A DNA stretch of 58,762 bases, from NCBI GenBank assembly GCA_024655925.1, contig JANLFS010000005.1:1-58762 (forward strand), written 5' to 3'. The translations under genes and the position numbers were made by a program. Source of the DNA: Bacillota bacterium (GTDB lineage Bacteria; Bacillota; DTU025; JANLFS01). Positions 9,744 through 55,651 of this stretch are shown here, in pieces. Each line of letters starts with the position of its first letter. The stretch's first letter is position 1. The notes below the pieces were generated by a model that had not been told where the DNA came from, ran no database searches, and saw only the letters and a program-made list of their open reading frames with translations.

Positions 9744-11666
9744 CTACGTGCTTGAAACAGATCTGTCCGACCGATTCTTCAGTTTTCGCCACAGAGTCAC
9801 TCTACTTATGCCGAGCCTCTTGGCGGCGAGGCTCTTGTTCCCGTGGCATTCCTCGAGCGCCGCCAATACAGTCTCGACCTCCAGGTCGTTCACGACCTCT
9901 CTCAGGTTTCCAGGACATGCCCCCCCATGTTCGGAGCAAGAAAGGAAGTCGGGTGGAAAGTCCAGGATTCCCTGCAGATCGGCTGAGGTTACGAGATGCT
10001 TATCGTGAAGTGTTATGACCCGTTGGATTATGTTCTTGAGCTCCCTCACATTGCCAGGCCAGTCGTATCTGCAGAGAAGGTTGACCGCGTCCGGCGATAG
10101 GGTCTTCCGATGCTTGCCTGTGGCTCGAGTGTAAACATCGAGGAAAAAGTCGGCGAGGAGTGGGATATCGTCTTTCCTGGTCCTAAGTGGGGGGATGAAG
10201 AGACGCAGGACGTCCAGACGGAAGTAGAGATCCGAGAGGAACTGACCCGATGCCACGAGTGCCTTGAGGTCACGGTTGGAGGCGGCAATCACCCTGACGT
10301 CCACAGGAATAACCTTGTCGTCTCCGATCCTCATGACCTCTCTCTCCTCAAGTACCCTGAGGAACCTCTCCTGGAGAGGCAGCGGCATTCCTGCGATCTC
10401 GTCAAGGAACACGGTACCTCCGTGGGCTTGCTCGAAGAGCCCCACTTTCCCGGCCTTTCGGGCACCGGTAAAGGCACCATCCACGTACCCGAAGAGCTCG
10501 CTCTCGAGCAGGGTGTCGGGAAAAGCGGCGCAGTTGACCGCGACAAAAGGGCCATGCCTGCGGGGGCTGCCGTTGTGGATGCTTTGGGCGAAGAGCTCCT
10601 TGCCAGTTCCAGTCTCGCCCAAAATCAGGACTGTATAGGAAGACTCCGCGAACCTGCGTGCGGTGTCCAACGCAGTGTTAATACCTTTACTGTTCCCGAC
10701 TATGTCTTCGAAGGTGAACCTCGCCACATGCCCGTGAGCCATGAGCTTTTGCCTCACGTTACGTTCGAGATTCTGCAGGCTCGTGACCTTCTGGAGGGTG
10801 GCTACGGCACCCAGGCATCTGCCGTGACACGTTATTGGATACTTGTTGATAGTCACCTGGACGCCTCCGACCTTCTGGACCTCTCCGGTCTCTGCCTCAC
10901 CCGTCCTCACGACGTTCAGGACTTCTATGTTTGGAAAGAGACTGGCGATGTGGCGCCCGAGCACCCCTGCTGCGGGTAACCCAGTCATTTGCTGAGCCGC
11001 TTTATTGAACTCGAGGACCCTGCCAACTTTGTCTACCGCGATTATCCCATCTGATACACTATTGATTACCTGATGCAGAATGCTCGACCTGTCTTCCCTA
11101 CCCTCCTGGCTGAGGATCACCTCGTTCGCCTGCTGTATCGCCCATTCGAGGCTGTTTCTGCCGGACTCGATCAGTATTCCGGTCAGGTTGAACCTCGGGG
11201 CATTCTGCACACCTATGACTCCCCCAACTACGACGCGTATTCCCATTCGGCGCAGTTCGCGCAGGCGGTCGCGGGCTTCGTCCTCGTTATCGATGGGGAC
11301 ATCAATGATCTCTGCTCCAAAGACTTCCGAAAGGACTTTGGTGTCAGGCGACAAGATATTGCGAAAGAACATGACCGCGACTCTCCGGTCGATCTCAAGG
11401 GCCTTCATGACAGCGCGCGCGATCTCGTAGCCGGTAATAGGCACCGTGACCAGTGGCAGGCCCACGTCTTCTGCTTCCTTGATGCATATGGCGGTTCCAC
11501 CTCTGCTCACAAGGACCTTTGCCCCGAGCGCCTTAGCCTGCCTTGCTGCCCGTACTCCCTCGTCCATGAGTCCTTTCACGATGGTCAAAGGTGTCCCGGA
11601 CCCGGCAATGTCACTCGCAATGCTAGCGAGGCCCTCGTAGGGAGCAACTACAGCAATCCCTGCCAT
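9744..11666 (-). CDS. sigma-54-dependent transcriptional activator (PrpR-type N-terminal domain, PAS, AAA+, Fis-type HTH)
   Basis: GETGTGKE Walker A, the GAFTGA loop (here YVDGAFTGARK), RVIAASNRDL, and a C-terminal HGNKSLAAKRLGISRVTLWRKL HTH. Start taken at MAGIAVVAPYEG (ATG 11666) rather than the listed 11735. Confidence 0.85.
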   Translation of the reverse strand: MAGIAVVAPYEGLASIASDIAGSGTPLTIVKGLMDEGVRAARQAKALGAKVLVSRGGTAICIKEAEDVGLPLVTVPITGYEIARAVMKALEIDRRVAVMFFRNILSPDTKVLSEVFGAEIIDVPIDNEDEARDRLRELRRMGIRVVVGGVIGVQNAPRFNLTGILIESGRNSLEWAIQQANEVILSQEGREDRSSILHQVINSVSDGIIAVDKVGRVLEFNKAAQQMTGLPAAGVLGRHIASLFPNIEVLNVVRTGEAETGEVQKVGGVQVTINKYPITCHGRCLGAVATLQKVTSLQNLERNVRQKLMAHGHVARFTFEDIVGNSKGINTALDTARRFAESSYTVLILGETGTGKELFAQSIHNGSPRRHGPFVAVNCAAFPDTLLESELFGYVDGAFTGARKAGKVGLFEQAHGGTVFLDEIAGMPLPLQERFLRVLEEREVMRIGDDKVIPVDVRVIAASNRDLKALVASGQFLSDLYFRLDVLRLFIPPLRTRKDDIPLLADFFLDVYTRATGKHRKTLSPDAVNLLCRYDWPGNVRELKNIIQRVITLHDKHLVTSADLQGILDFPPDFLSCSEHGGACPGNLREVVNDLEVETVLAALEECHGNKSLAAKRLGISRVTLWRKLKNRSDRSVSST

Positions 11667-42715: not shown

Positions 42716-44992
42716 ATGGGGGACTTCAGGTGGGTTGGAAAACCTGTTGCTAGGGTGGATGCTGTTGACAAAGTCGCCGGGTCTCAGAGGTACATGGGCG
42801 ACCTTGTATTCCCGGGGATGGTCTACGGCCGCGTGCTGCGGAGTCGGCATCCGCATGCTCTGATCAAGTCCATAGATACCTCGAGGGCGGAAAAGGCCCC
42901 TGGGGTGATCAGGGTGCTCACTTGGCGTGACGTCCCGGGGTTGAATGCCTACGGAATCGTTGTCCCCGATCAGCCCGTGTTGTGCCACGAGAAGGTCCGG
43001 TACATGGGTGACGCAGTGGCACTCATCATCGCTGAATCAGAGGGAGAGGCGGAGGCAGCCCTCGATCTGGTCGCTATCGAGTATGACCCTCTACCCGTGG
43101 TCACCGACGCAGAGGCCGCGATGTCAGCGGACTCCCCAATGGTCCACGAACCCGGAAACATCCATCTCCATACGCATGTGGAGAATGGCAACACCGAGGC
43201 AGGGTTCGCCCAGGCTGATGTGGTGGTGGAGGGCGTGTACTATACCCCCAGGCAGATGCACGCCTTTCTTGAGCCTGAGTCTGGAGTGGGAGTGCCTGAG
43301 AAGGGTGGGGGAGTCACAGTCTACTGCGGATCCCAGCACCCCTACAGAGACCAGATGCAGATCTCCAGGTCCCTCAGGATGAAGCCTTCCCAGATCCGTG
43401 TAGTCTCCACTCCGGCTGGAGGGGCGTTCGGGGGAAAAGACGAAATCACCCTGCAGATTCTTGTGGCGCTCGGGGCGATGGCGACCGGGCTGCCGGTCAA
43501 GATAGTCCTCTCCCGTGAAGAGTCAGTCATCGCCGGGTGGAAGCGCCACCCGATGAAAATCTACATGAAAACAGGAGCCCTACGCGACGGCACTTTGATT
43601 GCCCATGAGGCCCGGGTCGTCGCCGACACAGGCGCCTACGCTTCGCTCGGCGGGCCTGTCACCAACCTGTGCCTTGAGAACTGCTGCGGCGTATACCGGA
43701 TCCCGAACATCTCACTCTCCGGCTTCTGCGTCTACACGAACAACGGTGTGTCAGGCGCGTTTCGCGGATTCGGGGTTCCGCAGGCCACCTTCGCGATGGA
43801 GACCCAGATGGACAAGATTGCAGACGCCCTGGGCATGGACCGCCTCGAGATCAGGAAGCAGAACGCACTGAGGGGCGGGGAGAAGTCGCCCCTCGGGCAC
43901 ACGATGGCAGACGCGGTCGGGACCTCCCGCACTCTTGAGGAAGCCGGCAGACACGAGTTGTGGGTGCGCAGGGAGGAGTTGAAGAAAGAGTCATCCGCCC
44001 CGTGGCGCAAGCGAGGGGTTGGACTGGCGGTCCAGATGCAAGGCACTGGCCTCGGGATGGGGCTTCCCGACTATGGTGCCGCCCTCATCCGCCTGGTGTC
44101 CGGAGGCAGGTTCGTGGTGTCGCTCTCCTGCCCCGAAATCGGGCAGGGAAACTCCACGACATATGCGCAGATGGCAGCGGAATCTCTGGGATGCGGCATT
44201 GGGGATGTGACGGTCATAACGGGCGACACCGCCCTCGGGCCCGACTCAGGGAGCTGCACCGCGTCGAGGTCCGTTTACACAGGGGGCAATGCTATATCCC
44301 TTGCTGCACGACAGATGAGAGAGAAACTCCAGGCTGAGGCAGGTCGTGTGCTCGGGGTCGAACCCGAGGGTGTGGTGATCGAGTCGGGAGCAGCGCGAGC
44401 CGGCGAAAGGCGTGTCTCGTTCTCAGAGCTTGCGGCGATGGTTTCCGCAGAAGGCCGCGAAATCTCTGCAGACGGGGCGTTCATCTGGCCTGTCGCCGAC
44501 AAGCCGGTTCAGGGTGCGGTGGGTCTTCCACACCTCATCAACTCCTACGTGACCCACCTCGCTCTGGTGGAGGTGGACGAGATGACCGGGGAGACAGAGG
44601 TCCTGCGCATAGTGGCCATAACCGACGCCGGCCGGGTCGTGAATCCTCAGGGGCTCGTCGGGCAGTCCGAGGGCGGCGCGGTCATGGGGATGGGGTATGC
44701 CCTCATGGAGGACACGATCATCGAGGACGGCATCACGAAGACGCCGAATTTCTCCACCTACATAGTCCCCACCAGCATGGACACTCCGGAAGTGGAAACC
44801 AGGGCCGTCGAGGTCCTCGAACCCACGGGGCCTTTTGGGGCGAAAGGAATAGGTGAGGCGGTGATGGTTCCGGTTGCCCCGGCGATCACAGGAGCCATCA
44901 GAGACGCAGTCGGTGTCTGGCTGGACAGGATACCGGCCACTGCGGAGCGAGTGTTGGCGAAGATCTGGGAGAACCGGGAGAATCGGAGGTGA
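42716..44992 (+). CDS. xanthine-dehydrogenase-family molybdopterin-binding large subunit, copy 1
   Basis: VDAVDKVAGSQRY, GGAFGGK, GAFRGFGVPQ, GQGNSTTYAQ, GAKGIGEA. Confidence 0.9.
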   Translation: MGDFRWVGKPVARVDAVDKVAGSQRYMGDLVFPGMVYGRVLRSRHPHALIKSIDTSRAEKAPGVIRVLTWRDVPGLNAYGIVVPDQPVLCHEKVRYMGDAVALIIAESEGEAEAALDLVAIEYDPLPVVTDAEAAMSADSPMVHEPGNIHLHTHVENGNTEAGFAQADVVVEGVYYTPRQMHAFLEPESGVGVPEKGGGVTVYCGSQHPYRDQMQISRSLRMKPSQIRVVSTPAGGAFGGKDEITLQILVALGAMATGLPVKIVLSREESVIAGWKRHPMKIYMKTGALRDGTLIAHEARVVADTGAYASLGGPVTNLCLENCCGVYRIPNISLSGFCVYTNNGVSGAFRGFGVPQATFAMETQMDKIADALGMDRLEIRKQNALRGGEKSPLGHTMADAVGTSRTLEEAGRHELWVRREELKKESSAPWRKRGVGLAVQMQGTGLGMGLPDYGAALIRLVSGGRFVVSLSCPEIGQGNSTTYAQMAAESLGCGIGDVTVITGDTALGPDSGSCTASRSVYTGGNAISLAARQMREKLQAEAGRVLGVEPEGVVIESGAARAGERRVSFSELAAMVSAEGREISADGAFIWPVADKPVQGAVGLPHLINSYVTHLALVEVDEMTGETEVLRIVAITDAGRVVNPQGLVGQSEGGAVMGMGYALMEDTIIEDGITKTPNFSTYIVPTSMDTPEVETRAVEVLEPTGPFGAKGIGEAVMVPVAPAITGAIRDAVGVWLDRIPATAERVLAKIWENRENRR

Positions 44993-44996
44993 TCGA

Positions 44997-47339
44997 TTGG
45001 TACGGCATCAGCGGTGGTCTGGGACCTGGTTTCCCGTTTCCGCTCCAGCTCCCAGAGTGGATGGAAGAGACAAGGTTACCGGGGCTGCAGTCTACGGGGC
45101 GGATCTTTCCTTCGACGGAATGCTTCACGCAGTGGTGGTCAGGGCGCGCTACCCCCACGCCGTCGTGAACGCGATACACACCGAACAGGCGAGACGGGCT
45201 CCTGGGGTTGTGGCTGTTCTCACCGCGGCCGACATCCCCGGGCGCAATGCTTTCGGAGTAGTCATACAGCATCAGCCCTTTCTTGCATCTGAGCGAGTCA
45301 GGTACCTGGGCGACGGCCTTGCCCTGGTCGCTGCGGAGACACGGGATCAGGCCGAGAGGGCCGCCGGCCTTGTGAGGGTGGACTATACCGAGCTGCCGGC
45401 AGTCTTCTCACCGGAGGAAGCCCAGGCCCCCGCCGCGCCAGTGATCCATGAGGAATACCCGGGGAACGTGGTCGTGCATCATCCAGTGAGAAAGGGAGAT
45501 GTGGAGCGGGGTTTTGCGGAGTCCGACGTGATCCTGGAGAGGGAATACCGCACCGCGCTGATAGAGCACGCCTACATCGAGCCCGAGGCCGTAGTGGCGA
45601 TGCCCGGACCTGGTGGGTCCGTGACGGTCTGGGGGTCCATCCAGAACCCGTTCTCCGCGCGCAGGGCCGTCGCGGGTGCGCTTGCGCTTCCCCTTGCTCG
45701 GGTAAGGATAATCCAGACCAACATGGGTGGATCCTTCGGAGGCAAGGATGAGGTGATGTCGGCCATGGCAGGCCGCGCCGCCCTTCTCGCGAGAGCCACC
45801 GGACGCCCTGTGAAGATGGTTAACACTCGCGAGGAATCACTCATCGAGTCGTACAAGCGTCATCCCTACGTGATGAGCTACAAAGTCGGGGCGAAACGCG
45901 ATGGAAAGATCATGGCGATGCAGGTCAGAATGGTGGCAGACGCGGGCGCCTACGCTTCGATGAGCCCCTTCGTGACGTGGCGTTCGACAGTGCAGGCCAC
46001 GGGGCCTTACGAGATACCAAATGTGCGGACAGACGTCATAGCCGTCTTCACCAACAACACCTACACAGGGGCCATGAGGGGATTTGGGTCACCTCAGGCG
46101 ATCTTCGGCAACGAGTCTCTCATGGACGAACTCGCCGACGAGCTCGGAATGGACCCCCTCGCCCTGCGCATGAAGAACGGGTTCAGGGCGGGGTCAGTGA
46201 CCGCCACAGGGCAAATCCTGGACAACCACACCGTGTCCCTGGTCGAGGTGATGGAGAAAGCGGCCACGGAGGCGGGGTATGCCGAGAAACGCCGGAACCT
46301 GCCCCAGTTGTCGGCCGGCAATCCAGTCAAACGGGGCATCGGCCTTGCCGCAAGTTTCCGCGGGTGCAGCTTGGGTGCTGAGGGTGTGGATGCCACGGGA
46401 GCGATCGTGTCAGTGCAAACTGACGGAAGCGTCCTGGTCTTCTCGGGGCTGGCTGAGAACGGGCAAGGGCTCAAGACCATATTCTCTCAGATTGCCGCGA
46501 CAGAATTGGGAGTCTCTCTGGGCAGGATCGTCTTCATGGACACGGACACGTCCACGGTCCCGGACGGTGGTCCCACAGTAGCCTCGAGAAGTACGGTCAT
46601 GGGGGGGAACGCAGTCCGGATCGCAGCGGCCAAAGCACGGCAGGCCCTGTTCGAGGCAGCGGCCCAGGCTCTCTCCTGTTCGCCTTCTGAACTTGCCGCT
46701 GAGCGTGATAGGATCTTCGTCCGAGCGCAGCCCGAGCGTGGAATGGAGTTCGATGAAGCGGTTGGGCTTGCATGGAACGAAGGGAAGCTCATGGCGGAGT
46801 TTGGGTGGTATGGGGCCCCCAAGGTCGACTGGGACGAGGCAACCGGACAGGGTCGCGCCTATTTCACCTACGTCTACGGCTGCCAGGTGGCGGAGGTCGC
46901 AGTGGACACTGAGACCGGGCAGGTGGTGGTGGAGCGAATCACCGCTGCCCATGACGTCGGCCGGGCCATAAACCCTCAGATGGTTCAGGGCCAGGTCTTC
47001 GGAGGCGTGGCGATGGGACTAGGCTACGCGCTGCTCGAGGAAGTGGAGCTGGACGCGGGGAGGACCAAGACACAGAACTTCGACGAATACCTGATTGCCA
47101 CAGCTTCGGACGTCCCTGAGGTTGTTCCTTTGATCATCGAGAACCCTGACTCTCACGGGCCGTACGGAGCCAAGACTGTGGGTGAGCCCACCTGCGAGCT
47201 TGCGGCGGCCGCAATAGCCAACGCCATTGCCCACGCATGTGGCAGACGAGTGAGAGACCTGCCCATAGACATGGAGAAGGTCCTGCTCGGACGGTCGCTG
47301 AGACCGATGCGCGGCGGAAGGGGGAGTGAGGCGCGGTGA
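44997..47339 (+). CDS. xanthine-dehydrogenase-family molybdopterin-binding large subunit, copy 2
   Basis: VDGRDKVTGAAVY, GGSFGGK, GAMRGFGSPQ, GQGLKTIFSQ, GAKTVGEP. The TTG at 44997 lies 7 nt after GGAGG. The listed start 44874 is inside copy 1. Confidence 0.85.
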   Translation: MVRHQRWSGTWFPVSAPAPRVDGRDKVTGAAVYGADLSFDGMLHAVVVRARYPHAVVNAIHTEQARRAPGVVAVLTAADIPGRNAFGVVIQHQPFLASERVRYLGDGLALVAAETRDQAERAAGLVRVDYTELPAVFSPEEAQAPAAPVIHEEYPGNVVVHHPVRKGDVERGFAESDVILEREYRTALIEHAYIEPEAVVAMPGPGGSVTVWGSIQNPFSARRAVAGALALPLARVRIIQTNMGGSFGGKDEVMSAMAGRAALLARATGRPVKMVNTREESLIESYKRHPYVMSYKVGAKRDGKIMAMQVRMVADAGAYASMSPFVTWRSTVQATGPYEIPNVRTDVIAVFTNNTYTGAMRGFGSPQAIFGNESLMDELADELGMDPLALRMKNGFRAGSVTATGQILDNHTVSLVEVMEKAATEAGYAEKRRNLPQLSAGNPVKRGIGLAASFRGCSLGAEGVDATGAIVSVQTDGSVLVFSGLAENGQGLKTIFSQIAATELGVSLGRIVFMDTDTSTVPDGGPTVASRSTVMGGNAVRIAAAKARQALFEAAAQALSCSPSELAAERDRIFVRAQPERGMEFDEAVGLAWNEGKLMAEFGWYGAPKVDWDEATGQGRAYFTYVYGCQVAEVAVDTETGQVVVERITAAHDVGRAINPQMVQGQVFGGVAMGLGYALLEEVELDAGRTKTQNFDEYLIATASDVPEVVPLIIENPDSHGPYGAKTVGEPTCELAAAAIANAIAHACGRRVRDLPIDMEKVLLGRSLRPMRGGRGSEAR

Positions 47340-48289
47340 CGAGGTTTGACTACTTCCGGCCCGCCGGGCTTGTTCAGGCCTGCGAGTTTCTCTCTGCTCA
47401 CTCAGGGTGGGCGAAAGTCATTGCGGGAGGGACCGATCTGCTGATCGCCGTGAGGCGAGGACAGTGGCCCCCTGCGGGGAGTAGGGGTGCGGAGGAGCAG
47501 GGCGCAGTTCCTATCGACAACCTGTCGCCGGAACGGACCAGGGCGTGGGTTGTGGATGTATCTTGTCTGCAGGAACTCCGCGGCATCCGGGATCACGAGG
47601 GGCTTATAGTCTCCATCGGCGCCGCATGCACACACACACAGGTAGCGGAATCCACGGAGATCAAGCGGTTTGCCCCGATGCTGGCGGTAGCGTCCGAAAG
47701 CGTGGGGTCTGTTCAGATCAGGAACCGGGGCACCATCGGCGGCAACATAATGAATGCTTCGCCAGCCGCAGACACTCTCCCCGCGCTGGTTGCGTTGGAC
47801 GCCCGAGCGGTTCTGGTGTCTCCGTCCGGCACACGAGAGCTCGCAGTGGCCGAACTCGTCACCGGACCCTACCGGACCTGTGCTCGAGAGGATGAGATCC
47901 TCGCGAGGGTGGAGTTCCAGAAGCTGCCGCAGGGTGCCAGAATGGCCTTCACCAAGCTCGGCAGGAGGAGTTCCATGGCAATTGCGAGGCTCTCGTGTGC
48001 GGTGGCACTGGTGCCGGGTCCGGACGGAACCGTAAGGGAAGCTCGGATATCCGCCGGGGCGGCATTCCCGAGACCCGTCAGGATCGGCGCGGCCGAAGAG
48101 GTTCTCGTGGGGAGAGTGCCTGATGCCGAGGCTGCCAGAGAGGCAGGAGAGAAGGCCGCTCTCGAGATGGTGCGGGTGACTGGAGTCAGGTGGTCCACGG
48201 ACTACAAACACCCGGTTCTTTCCACCTTGGTGGCCAGGACGATCATGAAGTGCTTGGGCAGGGAGGAGGGTTCAGCGTGGGCCAGGTGA
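47336..48289 (+). CDS. molybdenum hydroxylase FAD-binding medium subunit, copy 2
   Basis: IAGGTDLLIAV, RNRGTIGGNI. GTGA overlap with the preceding gene. Confidence 0.85.
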   Translation: MTRFDYFRPAGLVQACEFLSAHSGWAKVIAGGTDLLIAVRRGQWPPAGSRGAEEQGAVPIDNLSPERTRAWVVDVSCLQELRGIRDHEGLIVSIGAACTHTQVAESTEIKRFAPMLAVASESVGSVQIRNRGTIGGNIMNASPAADTLPALVALDARAVLVSPSGTRELAVAELVTGPYRTCAREDEILARVEFQKLPQGARMAFTKLGRRSSMAIARLSCAVALVPGPDGTVREARISAGAAFPRPVRIGAAEEVLVGRVPDAEAAREAGEKAALEMVRVTGVRWSTDYKHPVLSTLVARTIMKCLGREEGSAWAR

Positions 48290-48747
48290 GAGTGAAATTC
48301 TCGGTTAACGCGACTGCGGTGTCGGTGGATGTGCCAGATGATGAAAGGCTCGTTGACACTCTCCGGACCAGGCTACGCCTGACAGGCACGAAGGAAGGGT
48401 GCGGGATAGGAGAGTGCGGCGCGTGCACGGTCATCCTGAACGGGCTGGCGGTGAACTCGTGCCTGGTCCTCACCACTTCGTGTCAAGAGGCGGAGATCAC
48501 TACCGTGGAGGGGCTTGCATGTGGCGAGGCACTCCACCCGCTCCAACAGGCCTTCATCGATCACGGGGCGGTGCAGTGTGGGTTCTGCACTCCCGGCATG
48601 CTCCTATCGGCGAAAGCCCTCCTCGATCGGAATCCCAACCCTAGTAGGGACGAGATACGAAAGGCGATCTCGGGGAACCTTTGCAGGTGCACTGGGTACG
48701 AACAGATAGTGAGAGCCATCGAGTCAGTAGCGGGGGGACGTCAATGA
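48277..48747 (+). CDS. molybdenum hydroxylase small (2x[2Fe-2S]) subunit, copy 2
   Basis: GCGIGECGACTV, QCGFCTPGM, CRCTGY. GTG at 48277 behind GGGAGGAGGG. Confidence 0.85.
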   Translation: MGQVRVKFSVNATAVSVDVPDDERLVDTLRTRLRLTGTKEGCGIGECGACTVILNGLAVNSCLVLTTSCQEAEITTVEGLACGEALHPLQQAFIDHGAVQCGFCTPGMLLSAKALLDRNPNPSRDEIRKAISGNLCRCTGYEQIVRAIESVAGGRQ

Positions 48748-50081
48748 AGGCGAGACTCGTGATCGGGAACGCAGTCGTCCTGACGTTGGGCGAAGAGCCG
48801 AGGGTGATAGAGAACGGGGCTGTGGCCATCTCCGGCGAATTCATCGTGGACATCGGGACCACGGCTGAGTTGAGGCAGAGATACCCGGATGCCCGATTTA
48901 CGGGAGTTGACGGGAAGCTAGTGATGCCCGGCATGACCTGTACTCACATGCACCTGTACAGCACGTTCGCCCGGGGGATCCCGCTCCCTGGCGAACCCGC
49001 CAGGACTTTCGGGCAGATACTGGAAAGACTTTGGTGGCGTCTGGACAGAGCGCTGGGCCCTGAGGACGTATGGATGAGTGCTGTCATGCCCTTGATCTGG
49101 TGTGTCAAGAACGGGACCACCACCATACTGGACCATCACTCCAGCCCGAACTGCATCCCGGGGTCGTTGGACATCATCGCTGACGCGGTCGAAAAGACCG
49201 GCATCAGGGCTTCTCTCGCCTACGAAGTATCCGACCGTGACGGGGCGCGAGCGACAAAGGAGGGCATCGCCGAGAATCTGAGGTTCATCGAAAGGTGTAA
49301 CCGGACGAAGTCCACCCGCCTGCGCGCGACCTTTGGGCTGCACGCGTCGTTTACGCTTTCCGACGAAACACTCAGAAGGTGTGCTGAGCTTTCCGAGGCG
49401 CGGGAAGCGGGGTTCCACATTCACACGGCCGAGGGCATTGAGGACCTTGTGGACAGCGTTCGCCATCACGGTATGCCAGTGGTGAAGCGACTGGACGGTT
49501 TCGGGATTTGGAACAAGAAGGCGCTGGCGATCCACTGTGTTCACGTTTGCCCGGAGGAGATGGAGATCCTTCGGACAAGAGGCGCGAACGTGGTGCACAA
49601 CCCGGAGTCCAACATGGGCAATGCCGTGGGGGTTGCCCCGGTCCTCGAGATGATCAAGCGGGATGTGACTGTGGGGATGGGGACCGATGGGTACACCACC
49701 GACATGTTTGAAACCATCAAAGTGGCCAACTGCCTGCACAAACTCAAGGAGGCAGACCCGCAGGCCGCCTGGTCAGAAGTCCCGGCCATGGCCTTTTCCA
49801 ACAACTCTCGCATCCTTGCGAAGTACTGGCAAACCCCCTTGGGCGTTCTGACCCCAGGTGCTTATGCCGACCTCATAGTGGTGGATTACAGGCCGCCGAC
49901 ACCCATGACCGAACACAACTGGTACAGCCACATCCTCTTTGGCGTATCCGGAGGGATGGTTGACAGCACCATGGTGGGAGGGAAGTTCCTCATGAGACGG
50001 AGGAAGCTCACCACCCTGGATGAGGAGGAGATGGCTGCCAGATCCCGTGAACTTGCGAGGAGACTGTGGGATAGGTTGTAG
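48744..50081 (+). CDS. ssnA: SsnA-family aminohydrolase (amidohydrolase superfamily)
   Basis: Resembles E. coli SsnA as I recall it: MPGMTCTHMHLYS, LWWRLDRAL (identical), ILDHHSSP, FHIHTAE, VHNPESNM, GTDG. ATGA overlap with the previous gene. Confidence 0.8.
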   Translation: MKARLVIGNAVVLTLGEEPRVIENGAVAISGEFIVDIGTTAELRQRYPDARFTGVDGKLVMPGMTCTHMHLYSTFARGIPLPGEPARTFGQILERLWWRLDRALGPEDVWMSAVMPLIWCVKNGTTTILDHHSSPNCIPGSLDIIADAVEKTGIRASLAYEVSDRDGARATKEGIAENLRFIERCNRTKSTRLRATFGLHASFTLSDETLRRCAELSEAREAGFHIHTAEGIEDLVDSVRHHGMPVVKRLDGFGIWNKKALAIHCVHVCPEEMEILRTRGANVVHNPESNMGNAVGVAPVLEMIKRDVTVGMGTDGYTTDMFETIKVANCLHKLKEADPQAAWSEVPAMAFSNNSRILAKYWQTPLGVLTPGAYADLIVVDYRPPTPMTEHNWYSHILFGVSGGMVDSTMVGGKFLMRRRKLTTLDEEEMAARSRELARRLWDRL

Positions 50082-50116
50082 CAGGAAGAGTTGCAGAACA
50101 AGCAAGGTGATGGGGA

Positions 50117-50145
50117 CCCCGGTCATGCGGACCGGGGTGTTTCCA
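50117..50145 (+). terminator. putative terminator after ssnA
   Basis: CCCCGGTC-ATGCG-GACCGGGG followed by TGTTTCC (weak U-tract). Confidence 0.4.
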
Positions 50146-50161
50146 TCTATTTCGCCTTCAG

Positions 50162-50190
50162 TTGACCGCAGCCGGCCGAGGTGATATACT
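50162..50190 (+). promoter_or_regulatory. sigma-A promoter of the LuxR-type gene
   Basis: TTGACC - 17 nt - TATACT. Confidence 0.55.
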
Positions 50191-50231
50191 CATACTACCA
50201 ATAACGGAGATTTTTGGAAGGAGGGCCCCGC

Positions 50232-50705
50232 ATGTATGAGTCCACGCCAGACCCTGGGCCGGGAGTCGAGCCTCGCCCCATCGCTTGTGTGATGGAAGCG
50301 GCGCTGAGGCCGCTGCCCGAGTCCGGACACGACATATCAGCTTTGGTCGCTGCAGGGCTCGGTGGGCTAGAACCCTTACAGCCCGGTTCGCCGGGGCGAG
50401 GCCGGGGGATCATTCTCTTGTACATCAACCCACCTGCAGTCCGGGGTGGCTCGGACGTTCAGGTTGTGGAGAGGCCGGGTAAGGCTTCTGCCCCCTGTCT
50501 GGATATCCTGCGTCCGAGGCTCACCAGAGCTGAGAAAACCGTCATGGCCCTGCTCGCGGAGGGCAAGACGAACCGTGCGATCGCGCGGGAACTCTTCATC
50601 TCGGTCAATACGGTTAAGACCCATGTGCGCTCGATCTTTCAGAAGTTGGGTGTGGGGACCAGAAGCTCCGCGGTGCGAAGGGCTCTCGAAGCAGGACTCA
50701 TCTGA
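50232..50705 (+). CDS. LuxR/FixJ-type HTH regulator without a receiver domain
   Basis: The C-terminal LTRAEKTVMALLAEGKTNRAIARELFISVNTVKTHVRSIFQKLGV is a GerE/LuxR HTH. The N-terminal ~95 aa are Pro/Gly-rich with no recognisable domain. ATG at 50232 behind GGAAGGAGGG. Confidence 0.75.
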   Translation: MYESTPDPGPGVEPRPIACVMEAALRPLPESGHDISALVAAGLGGLEPLQPGSPGRGRGIILLYINPPAVRGGSDVQVVERPGKASAPCLDILRPRLTRAEKTVMALLAEGKTNRAIARELFISVNTVKTHVRSIFQKLGVGTRSSAVRRALEAGLI

Positions 50706-50849
50706 TCCTCACACGGGCGCATTCCGCCTCACAATTCACCCGTTCAGGCAATGGTAGTGGATTCGACGTGAATGGTATGATTTGCCTGCAAGCACCACCG
50801 CGCTGGAGGGCCGTCACCCGTGGCGCGCAACGGGAGGAGGTGAGCGGGA

Positions 50850-50951
50850 GTGTTCAGGGTTCTCGCAGGTCGCAAGGCCCGGGTCAACGTCTCCATCAAC
50901 AGCTTCTGCATCTCGTTTCCACTCTGGGGGCACTTCATAACGATCGGATGA
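50850..50951 (+). CDS. candidate RiPP precursor peptide (33 aa); not in the ORF track
   Basis: GTG start 9 nt after GGGAGGAGG. Translation: MFRVLAGRKARVNVSINSFCISFPLWGHFITIG. Third codon positions are mostly G/C, like the real genes here. It lies immediately upstream of the RRE-containing radical SAM gene, with a hairpin between them. Confidence 0.4.
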   Translation: MFRVLAGRKARVNVSINSFCISFPLWGHFITIG

Positions 50952-50984
50952 CTTCCCAGAGGGACCTCCACTCCAACCAGGCTC

Positions 50985-51016
50985 GGCGGGGGCCGTTTCG
51001 CGCACTGGTCCCCGCC
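50985..51016 (+). promoter_or_regulatory. 10-bp GC stem-loop between the candidate precursor and the radical SAM gene
   Basis: GGCGGGGGCC-12 nt-GGTCCCCGCC (one G-U pair), followed by a pyrimidine-rich CTCTTCTT. A possible attenuator or processing site. Confidence 0.4.
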
Positions 51017-51047
51017 CCCCAACACTCTTCTTGTGAGGTGTGGCGCG

Positions 51048-52370
51048 ATGGACGAACCCCAGACAGTATGGACTCTCCATCCCGGCGCCAGGGTCATCAA
51101 ATCGGAGTCAGCGTGGCTTGTGATGAACCCAGGGCTCGGAACATGGGCCAAGCTGTCGCCAGTGGCAGGGGCTGTGTGCCAGAATGATGCTGGAGAGGAC
51201 CTCCCAACCCTCGTGAATCGGGTCAGTACTGCTTTCGGGGCCTCAGGGGACGAGATACAGGGCTTCGTGCGGGACATGGCTGCGCGGGGATTGATATCTT
51301 GCGCCCCGACCGTCGCTCGGGCGGAGGAGGTCGCCCCGAGGCCCAAAGTGTTCCTGTCTGTGTGTGAACGCTGCAATCTTGCCTGCACCACCTGCTACCG
51401 AGGAGACCTATCAGGCCGCGATGCTCCAACCGAGGTTGCCCTGGACACCATGAGCAGGATTGTAGAGTTGCGTCCACGGGAGTTGGTTCTGACAGGGGGC
51501 GAGCCCTCTCTCAGGGACGACCTTCCTGACCTGCTCGAGATGGCACGGTCCGTCGCCCCTATGGTGACCCTGGCCACCAACGGCACTTCTATATCTCCTG
51601 CCCTCGCGCGGGCCATCGCCAGCTTCGACATCCGGGTGCAGGTGAGTATCGACTCCTCAGACCCCGGGGAGAATGACCGCGTCAGAGGCCCGGGTTCATT
51701 CGCGCGTGCCCTGGGTGGACTCGCCACATTGGCACGGGCGGGTGTCGCTTCCATAGAGCTTGTCGCCACCATGGTGGACCCAGCCACCTTCGACCCGGAC
51801 CGCCTGACCTCTCTCGCCCGGGAGTTCGGGGCGGGTTTTCATTCAAGCCTTTTTATGGAGGTGGGCAGAGGGCGGTGCACACCCAGGCACTCCAGGAGAG
51901 AACCGTCAGCTTTTGCCCGTGCCTTGCTGTCCTACCTCCTGCGCGCGTACCGTGCTGGTCTCATTCCAGCTGGGGCCAGTCTTGACGACGTTCTGGGGAT
52001 TGTGCCGAGGACCGCCTGTGGGGCGGGGACCCTCATTCTTGCCGTGTCTGCCTGGGGAACGGTGTATCCGTGTCACCTGCTCATGTCGGACGAGTTCGGT
52101 GTATCCTTCGACGAGGTCCTCTCCTGTGCTGGGGCCGGGTCGCCCTGGAGTATCCCCGGTGTCGACTCTTTGAAAGGATGCTCGGAGTGCAAGGTCAGGT
52201 ACCTGTGTGCGGGCGGCTGCAGGGCCTCCGCCCTTGCCGCAGGAGACTTGGCCGGCCGGGACCCGATGTGCGAGTCCTACCGTGCCTTCCTGGAGGCCGT
52301 CGTATGGCCCTGGGACGACTCTCGGGGGACAGAGGAAAACCTCAAACACGCCTGGGCGGCCTTACAGTGA
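51048..52370 (+). CDS. radical SAM/SPASM peptide maturase with an N-terminal PqqD-like RiPP recognition element
   Basis: aa 1-95 follow the PqqD/RRE pattern (LHPGARVI..SAWLVMNP..GTWAKLSPVAGAVC...LVNRVSTAFG...IQGFVRDMAARGLI). CNLACTTCY is CxxxCxxC. The SPASM region reads CGAG..GTVYPCH...CSECKVRYLCAGGC...CESY. Confidence 0.8.
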   Translation: MDEPQTVWTLHPGARVIKSESAWLVMNPGLGTWAKLSPVAGAVCQNDAGEDLPTLVNRVSTAFGASGDEIQGFVRDMAARGLISCAPTVARAEEVAPRPKVFLSVCERCNLACTTCYRGDLSGRDAPTEVALDTMSRIVELRPRELVLTGGEPSLRDDLPDLLEMARSVAPMVTLATNGTSISPALARAIASFDIRVQVSIDSSDPGENDRVRGPGSFARALGGLATLARAGVASIELVATMVDPATFDPDRLTSLAREFGAGFHSSLFMEVGRGRCTPRHSRREPSAFARALLSYLLRAYRAGLIPAGASLDDVLGIVPRTACGAGTLILAVSAWGTVYPCHLLMSDEFGVSFDEVLSCAGAGSPWSIPGVDSLKGCSECKVRYLCAGGCRASALAAGDLAGRDPMCESYRAFLEAVVWPWDDSRGTEENLKHAWAALQ

Positions 52371-53068
52371 GTTCCGCGTGGCTCTACGGGGTTCTTGGGC
52401 TGTCAGTGGCGTCCCGGGCCCTTTGCGGCAGGCGTGGGGGGAGCACTCAGGTGGACGGCGGGGATGTGCTTCTCGGGTTAATCATGTGTCTTACGTGGGC
52501 CGCGACAGGCTCAGACCCTGGTGCCGTCTGGAAAGTGACCGGAACCCATATTGGCCGGGCGCACATTGTGAGGTGGGGGCTGGTCGCGTTGGTCATGTTG
52601 GTGACGAACGAGTGCATTCACATCTGGCTAACACGGCGGCACGGTCGCTGGATGGTGAGGGCCGGCGTCAACCCCGGCGGCGCTTACCTCGCGCTCAGGC
52701 ACCTCTCGACGGGGCGTGCCGCCCTTCTTGGGCTGCTGTTCACCTCCTCCGGTGCATTCCTCGAGGAGTTGCTGTTTCGAGGGATCATCTCGGAGGCGGT
52801 CGAGACTGTGGCTGGGCACGGTGCCGCCCTGATCGGGCAGGCTTTACTGTTCGGTGCGGTCCACTGGCTTCCCATGGCTGTCCGGCGTGCCCCCGGGCCG
52901 GTAGTGGTGTACGCGACCTTGATGCCCACCGCAGCCGGAGTGGTCCTCGGGTTCATCGCGCACCTGGAGGATAGCCTGATGGGGCCCTGGGTTATCCACT
53001 GGAGTCTGAACTACGGGGCGCTTCTGATCGCGGTATCGCGAAGGGCAAGTGAGCGCGCCTCGGCGTGA
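52367..53068 (+). CDS. CPBP-family (CAAX/Abi) intramembrane glutamic protease
   Basis: GTGA overlap with the radical SAM stop. Multiple TM helices. Motif 1 FLEELLFRG (EExxxR), motif 2 LLFGAVHW (FxxxH), and a later HWSLN. Confidence 0.75.
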   Translation: MSSAWLYGVLGLSVASRALCGRRGGSTQVDGGDVLLGLIMCLTWAATGSDPGAVWKVTGTHIGRAHIVRWGLVALVMLVTNECIHIWLTRRHGRWMVRAGVNPGGAYLALRHLSTGRAALLGLLFTSSGAFLEELLFRGIISEAVETVAGHGAALIGQALLFGAVHWLPMAVRRAPGPVVVYATLMPTAAGVVLGFIAHLEDSLMGPWVIHWSLNYGALLIAVSRRASERASA

Positions 53069-53126
53069 CGGTCCCATCGACTGCTTGAGGGCAGGTTGGA
53101 GCGGTCCAGGGGAGGGGGAACAGAAG

Positions 53127-53387
53127 TTGCACATTGGCCAGGTGTTTGCCATGCTGGGTAGGGCTTTCCTCGACCGGGCTCGGCACGCGTCCGACCGTGC
53201 CCGCCGTGAGCGGTTGGCCTGGAACGCATGCCGTTCCTTCTCGATGGCGTGGGCGTTGGGTGATTCGTCGCCGTCTGTGCCCAGAGGCCTTGTGGAGGCG
53301 GCAGGCATTCTGAGCGGTTCGCACCAAGGTTCTGCGGCATGGCAGAAGAAGGATTATGGGAACAAGCTGTCGAATGAACAATTATAG
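53127..53387 (+). CDS. hypothetical 86-aa protein
   Basis: TTG start 8 nt after GGGGAGGGGG. Helical and Arg-rich with no motif. Codon bias weakens toward the 3' end. Confidence 0.3.
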   Translation: MHIGQVFAMLGRAFLDRARHASDRARRERLAWNACRSFSMAWALGDSSPSVPRGLVEAAGILSGSHQGSAAWQKKDYGNKLSNEQL

Positions 53388-53441
53388 CAGCTTTCGGCAC
53401 CAACTCCACGATAAGTCTAGGGTTGAGGGGTTGTCGCGTGG

Positions 53442-55651
<2,210 letters not shown>

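Follow-up and report, generated by a model that had tools for sequence, protein, structure and literature searches.

A cassette of short-peptide, RRE-radical SAM/SPASM enzyme and CPBP protease genes, probably of RiPP type, in one clade of uncultured Bacillota

A compact unit of four genes, the subject of this report, lies at positions 50162-53068 of a 58,762-nucleotide (nt) stretch of DNA from a member of the Bacillota (contig JANLFS010000005.1; the whole stretch is called the window, and all coordinates are positions in it). The genes are all on the + strand, in one orientation, and are in this order those of a regulator, a 33-codon open reading frame (ORF), a radical S-adenosylmethionine (SAM) enzyme with a SPASM domain and a CPBP-type protease; they probably form a cassette for a ribosomally synthesised and post-translationally modified peptide (RiPP). 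The closest known gene set is skfA-skfB-skfC of Bacillus subtilis, in which skfB encodes a radical SAM thioether synthase carrying a RiPP recognition element (RRE) and skfC a putative Rce1-like protease of the CAAX family (PMC8172795, PMC9415966). The two sets resemble each other in the succession of a short precursor, an RRE-containing radical SAM enzyme and a CAAX/Rce1-like membrane protein thought to be a protease, in SkfB being the best match in the Protein Data Bank (PDB) to the sequence profile of the cassette enzymes (3.2e-16), and in the single Cys-to-Cα thioether of the sporulation killing factor (SKF), the cassette peptide having likewise a single invariant Cys. They differ in the auxiliary part of the enzyme, a twitch domain holding one auxiliary cluster in SkfB and a full seven-Cys SPASM domain in the cassette enzyme, in the absence from the cassette of the ATP-binding cassette (ABC) exporter/immunity pair and the thioredoxin-like protein of skf, and in the precursors, which have no sequence similarity; furthermore, the match to SkfB spans the radical SAM core alone (residues 115-292), and the CPBP protein is likened to SkfC by the published description of SkfC. 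The skfB/skfC pairing is thus a precedent for an RRE-radical SAM enzyme accompanied by a CAAX-type protease, which a preliminary description of this DNA had missed.

CteB, the thermocellin enzyme, and StsB have the same architecture, with an RRE at the N-terminus, then the radical SAM core and a seven-Cys SPASM domain, and CteB is the top full-length structural match (E 1.8e-15). However, the identity in sequence amounts to about 18%, the 95 bits scored with StsB compare with a cut-off of 625, the gene context is another one, and precursors of the CteB/StsB type carry several Cys whereas the cassette precursor has one. The mycofactocin system (MftA/MftB/MftC) also combines a short conserved peptide of invariant C-terminus with a radical SAM/SPASM enzyme and no exporter, but there the RRE is a separate protein, MftB, and here it is fused to the enzyme; no mft partner genes occur in any locus, and MftA ends in Val-Tyr whereas the cassette peptide ends in T-[IV]-G. 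In the staphylococcal agr pathway of the autoinducing peptide (AIP) the modification is a thiolactone made by AgrB, and we know of no dedicated exporter for it. A sensor kinase adjoins the cassette in the window and in the related locus L089, which recalls agr, but agr is without a radical SAM enzyme, and the kinase beside the cassette forms a pair with obg, appears older than the cassette and is missing from most cassette-bearing relatives. MroQ, an Abi/CAAX-type integral membrane protease, is reported to take part directly in the synthesis of the AIP pheromone from AgrD (PMC9388083). Lastly, the cyclopropyl synthases TigE and TvgB have TIGSVS and TVGG repeat substrates, the TigE motif containing T-I-G with the Ile modified, and a GYW motif is strictly conserved in them, its Tyr ligating auxiliary cluster I (PMC10878394). 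The cassette peptide shares the T-[IV]-G ending but is non-repetitive, and GYW is absent from the cassette enzymes (8 of 8 checked), so that assignment as a cyclopropyl synthase, prompted by this ending and by the TM-score of TigE (see below), was rejected.

In the literature no paper was found on CPBP proteins together with radical SAM enzymes and RiPPs, nor any description of such a cassette, which is a new, unnamed and uncharacterised family of a well-known peptide-modifying kind. Many uncharacterised SPASM clusters exist, and CPBP proteases are very common, most of them without known substrates. The traits which set this family apart are its strict vertical inheritance at one chromosomal site, the conservation of the precursor over its full length and the lack of an exporter. 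It offers a compact candidate for enzymology, namely an unclassified maturase and its putative 33-residue substrate, in which there are a single Cys, a single Trp and an invariant C-terminus, and the pairing of a CPBP protein with such an enzyme and no exporter is a test case for a general leader-peptidase role.

The precursor peptide gene and the enzyme

The 33-codon ORF (50850-50951, +), which begins with GTG and encodes MFRVLAGRKARVNVSINSFCISFPLWGHFITIG, is a real gene as judged by comparison of related loci, because its start codon and ribosome-binding site are conserved, substitutions are of the coding type in that frame alone, and many residues never change. It is conserved in every related locus that includes DNA 5' of the radical SAM gene. 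Its start codon at 50850 is replaced by ATG at the same codon in six loci (L019, L041, L043, L083, L084 and L090), and it is preceded by the ribosome-binding site GGAGGTG (50836-50842, +), 7 nt upstream; GGAGGTG or GGGGGTG stands 6-7 nt 5' of the start in all distinct loci. Pairwise comparison of 14 distinct DNA versions gave 800 synonymous and 975 non-synonymous codon changes in the peptide frame, against 269/1414 and 149/1515 in the other frames, with variable sites distributed 20/12/31 over the three codon positions. The residues M1, F2, A6, G7, R8, S15, C20, F23, W26, G27, T31 and G33 are the same in all 17 peptide variants, and positions 11 and 32 alternate between R and K and between I and V, respectively. 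The peptide is basic in its N-terminal half and hydrophobic in its C-terminal half, and the end of the peptide in the relatives reads C-x2-F-x2-WG-x3-T-[IV]-G-stop, with Cys20 as the sole conserved Cys (17/17).

No Pfam or NCBIfam model matches the peptide, and a peptide search with extended ORFs gave nine clusters, all from this cassette family. NCBI annotates 33-residue proteins at the peptide site in two relatives (P0099 and P0100); the window's own peptide is missing from the protein collection and from the public annotation of the contig, which leaves the precursor gene as an annotation gap. Gene callers placed a wrong-frame or opposite-strand ORF in the peptide region of some related contigs (e.g., L008, 5676-5858; L083, 5732-5926). 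In the window itself the overlapping ORFs 50782-50940 (52 residues, +), 50768-51187 (139 residues, +) and 50744-51391 (-) were considered and rejected, their frames being neither conserved nor of the coding type.

The enzyme gene (51048-52370, +) encodes 440 residues and corresponds to MCR4424850.1, 'radical SAM protein', in the NCBI record, of the same length and with the same start; the ATG at 51048 is preferred to a GTG at 51033 on account of the GAGGTG upstream, the alignment with relatives and the NCBI start. Pfam Radical_SAM matches it with 3.3e-17. The cysteines of the CX3CX2C motif (C109, C113 and C116; 51372-51395, +) and seven SPASM cysteines (C324, C342, C378, C381, C387, C391 and C408; 52017-52271, +) are invariant in 14/14 members, the spacing of the latter, C324-x12-G-x4-C342, C378-x2-C381-x5-C387-x3-C391 and C408, agreeing with the pattern CX9-15GX4C...CX2CX5CX3C...C, and an eighth cysteine, C277, is found in 10/14. 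In addition, the C-terminal part of the enzyme aligns with the SPASM domain of CteB in a profile match. A full-length AlphaFold model built on 32 sequences had a mean predicted local distance difference test score (pLDDT) of 85 and a predicted template modelling score (pTM) of 0.84. With Foldseek its best full-length match was CteB (1.8e-15, 449 aligned columns), followed by SuiB, TigE and SkfB, among which TigE had the highest template modelling (TM) score (0.60/0.59); anSME, ChlB and PqqE matched over the core and SPASM parts.

The N-terminal RRE (about residues 6-87; ~51063-51308, +) is indicated by several lines of evidence. Pfam PqqD matches 7/12 family members (best 5.5e-8), and both the CteB profile alignment and the StsB NCBIfam model begin at residue 25 of the enzyme and hence cover the RRE. 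In the models a β-sheet with strands at about residues 7-36 precedes three helices (38-79), the RRE fold being a winged helix-turn-helix of three strands and three helices. When residues 1-97 were modelled separately (pLDDT 79), the ~27 best structural matches were almost all RREs (TbiB1, the lasso protein B1 6jx3, TruD, McbB, PqqD, PbtF, TbtB, CteB, ThcOx and MccB), with TM-scores of 0.60-0.74 and root-mean-square deviations of about 2.1-2.8 Å to TbiB1, lasso B1 (6jx3) and PqqD.

Sequence and models therefore support the view that the enzyme is a putative RRE-dependent radical SAM/SPASM peptide maturase fitting no curated family. Against solved structures the family profile scored best with SkfB (3.2e-16) and CteB (5.3e-16). 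The best raw NCBIfam scores were those of MftC (TIGR03962; 101 bits, 6.6e-29, cut-off 265) and StsB (94.8 bits, cut-off 625), and AlbA was not among the best 25 of 58 matching families. A search of 1.84 billion representatives gave about five family representatives above 340 bits and then a graded tail, many of its members aligned over the full length; the ten nearest tail enzymes checked reached no curated cut-off, and StsB was their commonest best model. In a collection of 5.8 billion proteins just seven clusters are close to the enzyme, at 41-47% identity. Five radical SAM loci (L047-L051) of 24-27% identity were rejected as family members, their contexts being different and such a peptide being missing. 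There is thus a weak indication that the closest relatives are sactipeptide-type maturases (the StsB model, CteB and SkfB).

The preliminary description had predicted a RiPP-like unit with a CxxxCxxC site and a full SPASM set in its enzyme, had found no named family for it, and had stated what would speak against it, namely grouping of the enzyme with non-RiPP SPASM enzymes without a detectable RRE, or homologous loci without a conserved small ORF. Of these checks, all that were feasible support the description: the structural neighbours (CteB, SuiB, TigE and SkfB) and the best PDB sequences (SkfB and CteB) are peptide-modifying enzymes rather than non-RiPP ones, the RRE is detected both by Pfam PqqD and by structure, and the small ORF is present wherever upstream DNA is present. 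The lack of a named family also persisted for the enzyme and for the peptide.

Protease, regulator and control elements

The fourth gene (52367-53068, +) encodes a CPBP (type II CAAX, Rce1-like) intramembrane glutamic protease of 233 residues (MCR4424851.1), matched by the Rce1-like Pfam model PF02517 with 2.7e-12 and 47 bits (cut-off 22.4). Three motifs, EELLFR at residues 133-138 (52763-52780), FGAVH at residues 162-166 (52850-52864) and HWSLN at residues 211-215 (52997-53011), are conserved in all relatives. The stop codon of the maturase gene overlaps the start of the protease gene by 4 nt (GTGA in the window), and a GTGA or ATGA overlap of this length is seen in most relatives, a longer one in a few, so much for the gene that encodes the CPBP protein. 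It is the putative leader peptidase; alternatively, it may confer immunity.

The regulator of 157 residues (50232-50705, +) is of the LuxR/GerE type. Pfam GerE (PF00196) matches residues 103-157, the C-terminal helix-turn-helix, with 1e-18 and 67 bits (cut-off 23.5), and neither a receiver nor an autoinducer-binding domain was found in it by the Pfam and NCBIfam scans. In relatives the helix-turn-helix is about 55-76% identical while the N-terminal tail is of low complexity and varies in length and sequence, so that the conserved parts are the helix-turn-helix and one short hydrophobic motif and no more. The regulator was found in every locus of the family reaching far enough upstream. Between it and the peptide gene, a five-locus DNA alignment revealed an extended -10 element, TGgTATGAT (50773-50781, +), within the block ATG.TA.G.T, followed by TGCAAGC; this may be the promoter of the peptide gene. 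Ahead of the regulator gene there is another promoter-like site (50162-50190, +; TTGACC, a 17-nt spacer and a TG-extended TATACT, 10/12 consensus matches), the call being a match to the consensus pattern alone.

An RNA hairpin with an 11-bp stem and a 10-nt loop, without a U tract, lies between the peptide and maturase genes (50985-51016, +). Every locus examined has a counterpart of it, again without a U tract, the loop measuring about 4 to 10 nt. In an alignment of 10 sequences 87% of the cells are paired, against 32-53% with the partner slid; five pairs are changed on both sides, and swaps between A-U and G-U are frequent, which fits RNA pairing on the sense strand. It may act as an attenuator, a processing site or a stabiliser which sets the ratio of peptide to enzyme. 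A DNA operator for the regulator was considered and is unlikely, because the loop varies in length and the arms accept G-U-type changes. Rfam gave no match to the hairpin and nothing relevant in a scan of 50000-54500.

Inheritance, proposed pathway and rival explanations

The cassette was found in 10 of 185,579 species genomes (one genome per species), all of them metagenome-assembled genomes of uncultured, anaerobic Bacillota such as UBA5389, UBA1393 and UBA10085, and a further 19 loci came from metagenomes, many of them sampled from digesters and fermentations. For members of the genera UBA10085 and UBA5389 a syntrophic life by oxidation of acetate or butyrate in digesters and pit mud has been proposed (PMC9600251, PMC12460881). 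Wherever a locus has enough flanking DNA the genes follow one order, from regulator through peptide and enzyme to protease, with obg, nadD and other housekeeping genes after them, and the co-occurrence of the four genes is strict even where the upstream neighbours differ (L027, L083 and L089). Identity to the window is 60-70% for Obg (full-length matches), 58-77% for the peptide, 35-53% for the enzyme and 34-46% for the protease; a search with Obg sets the clade apart at about 59-60% Obg identity or more. The closest relative, L089 (Obg 66%), has the cassette and, as in the window, a SpoOB-type sensor kinase whose gene overlaps obg, whereas the next lineage out, L087/L088 (Obg 59%), has the kinase-obg pair and none of the four cassette genes. 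Because of this outgroup, the kinase-obg pair appears to be older and the cassette a clade-specific addition upstream of it, most cassette-bearing lineages having apparently lost the kinase later. The unit is therefore a vertically inherited locus of fixed position in one clade, unlike a typical mobile bacteriocin cluster.

We consider it quite probable that these genes are a self-contained cassette making a RiPP from the 33-residue precursor, and we infer the following course of events. The LuxR/GerE-type protein would control transcription, the extended -10 promoter would drive the precursor gene, and the hairpin behind this gene would probably keep the peptide message above the enzyme message. 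Binding of the RRE to the N-terminal half of the peptide, which is basic and conserved, would be followed by abstraction of a hydrogen atom by the radical SAM core, and the two SPASM clusters would serve to complete an intramolecular cross-link in the C-terminal half, C20-x2-F23-x2-W26-G27-x3-T31-[IV]32-G33. Finally, the leader would be cut off at the membrane by the translationally coupled CPBP protease, which may also assist in releasing the product. As for the chemistry, a single sulfur-to-carbon thioether at Cys20, of the sactipeptide or ranthipeptide type, is our tentative first choice, held at somewhat less than an even chance; it is favoured because there is no invariant Cys other than Cys20, because the characterised enzymes nearest to this one are sactisynthases and because only seven SPASM cysteines occur throughout the family. 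C277 is missing in 4/14 members, so one auxiliary cluster may have an open site, as is the case for an auxiliary cluster of CteB. A carbon-carbon link at Trp26 or Phe23 is next most likely, and a change at the T-[IV]-G end of the peptide is possible. The fixed, vertically inherited locus and the conservation of the peptide throughout suggest a role in the cell's own physiology, and a signal or self-directed function fits both better than an arms-race bacteriocin does.

Several points weigh against this account. The peptide is conserved along its entire length and its sequence shows no boundary between leader and core, the CPBP protein could be an immunity protein and not a leader peptidase, and the unit is without an exporter. 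The Pfam SPASM model PF13186 gives no match to the maturase, the window's own RRE matches Pfam PqqD with E = 0.21, and no NCBIfam model reaches its cut-off for the maturase, whose placement among the sactisynthases is weak. The stability of the hairpin in the window is not above that of shuffled sequences (z = -0.2), its evidence being comparative, and the covariation rests on 10 related sequences.

Other explanations concern the membrane protein and the nature of the product. The same RiPP cassette may have its CPBP protein as a self-immunity factor of the Abi/CAAX type of class II bacteriocins, with a general protease removing the leader. CPBP/Abi proteins are bacteriocin immunity proteins in lactic acid bacteria, where immunity also needs the catalytic motifs; a hydrophobic peptide core would suit a membrane-active product, and no other dedicated immunity gene is present. 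However, in most loci its gene is translationally coupled to that of the maturase, which suggests a partner in biosynthesis, skfC and MroQ provide CPBP precedents in peptide maturation, and so conserved a core is unlike that of an antimicrobial under diversifying selection, so that we regard an immunity role as unlikely. A further-reaching reading, which we hold to be rather unlikely as well, is a lineage-wide peptide cofactor or modified signal, not a bacteriocin, with an undescribed cross-link (e.g., Trp26-Gly27 or within T-[IV]-G), made without an exporter and tied to the growth-sporulation region of the spo0B-like kinase and obg, next to which the cassette lies in every case.

A peptide-derived cofactor or intracellular metabolite, in the manner of mycofactocin or pyrroloquinoline quinone (PQQ), would have the enzyme act on the T-[IV]-G end and the protease trim the product. 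MftC gives the best raw NCBIfam score (6.6e-29), no locus has a transporter, the position is fixed on the chromosome with vertical inheritance in all sampled members of the clade, and the peptide, whose C-terminus is invariant, equals housekeeping proteins in conservation (58-77% vs 60-70% for Obg); MftA and PqqA are similarly constrained in sequence, and an operon of redox enzymes is often adjacent. Yet the MftC score is 101 bits against a cut-off of 265, there are no counterparts of MftB, MftD, MftE, MftF, PqqB or PqqC, the one further enzyme, an intramembrane protease, speaks for processing at the membrane, and the dehydrogenase operon is absent upstream of the cassette in L027, L083 and L089; such a cofactor is decidedly improbable. 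A non-RiPP SPASM enzyme, similar to anaerobic sulfatase maturases or to AhbD/NirJ of the heme pathway, beside an ORF which is an unrelated membrane protein or no gene at all, could be read from the raw NCBIfam matches to NirJ2, AhbD and NirJ at 1e-22 and from anSME among the structural matches (TM 0.57/0.68). These three NCBIfam matches, however, span the radical SAM core alone, with scores well short of the cut-offs; SPASM enzymes of those kinds have no RRE, whereas this one does, no gene for a sulfatase or for the heme pathway adjoins it, and the ORF shows coding-type conservation and co-occurs with the enzyme in every locus including the upstream stretch. This explanation has hardly any likelihood.

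Gene limits and neighbouring genes

The unit lies between an operon of molybdopterin-dehydrogenase and amidohydrolase genes upstream and Obg, NadD and more housekeeping genes downstream, and no transporter is within it. In these respects the preliminary description was borne out, as it was in the receiver-less LuxR regulator ahead of the unit, in the small ORF, the RRE-radical SAM/SPASM enzyme and the CPBP protease, in the overlap of the maturase stop (TGA) with the protease start (GTG) and in the EExxxR and FxxxH motifs, found as EELLFR and FGAVH. The range which it gave, 50162-53387, is right at its start, which coincides with the promoter-like site, but the ~320 bases at its 3' end (53069-53387) are not in the unit. 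They belong to the 373-nt gap 53069-53441, which is overlapped by a 112-codon ORF (53049-53387, +) with no Pfam or NCBIfam match, no counterpart in related loci, a weak codon-position bias of G + C and apparently no NCBI annotation; this ORF is outside the unit and probably no gene, unless it is one peculiar to this genome.

Just past the stop codon of the amidohydrolase gene a terminator-like hairpin (~50113-50137, in the region 50107-50145, +; z = -2.3 vs shuffles), with the arms CCCCGGUC and GACCGGGG, the loop AUGCG and then a U-rich stretch, sets the cassette off from the catabolic operon as a transcription unit of its own. This operon (42716-50081, +) begins with two tandem large ORFs, 42716-44992 and 44874-47339, at the positions of molybdopterin-dehydrogenase large subunits, and after both of them there are ORFs matching an FAD subunit, a 2Fe-2S subunit and an amidohydrolase, as in a catabolic operon for purines or N-heterocycles; the domain assignments come from the Pfam matches of relatives, not from the window's own copies. 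The operon lies upstream in most loci and is replaced by other genes in L027, L083 and L089, and a functional link between it and the cassette was rejected, these three keeping the cassette without the operon directly upstream.

Between the protease gene and obg there is the gene of the SpoOB-type membrane sensor kinase of 300 residues (53442-54344, +; SPOB_a and HATPase_c). It overlaps the start of obg at ~54330-54368, an arrangement which resembles spo0B-obg of Bacillus, and most cassette-bearing relatives have no kinase there. The kinase was rejected as part of the cassette, since it overlaps obg, is present in the cassette-less outgroup and is absent from most cassette-bearing relatives. 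In the outgroup locus L087 a different radical SAM gene (145-1611, +; 488 residues, Radical_SAM and Fer4_12) lies about 5 kb upstream of the kinase-obg pair, and its product matches the window's enzyme over 86 residues with 37% identity. In L090 an insertion downstream of the conserved block (10994-11620, -), between rsfS and leuS, contains a phage-type integrase gene and a small ORF.

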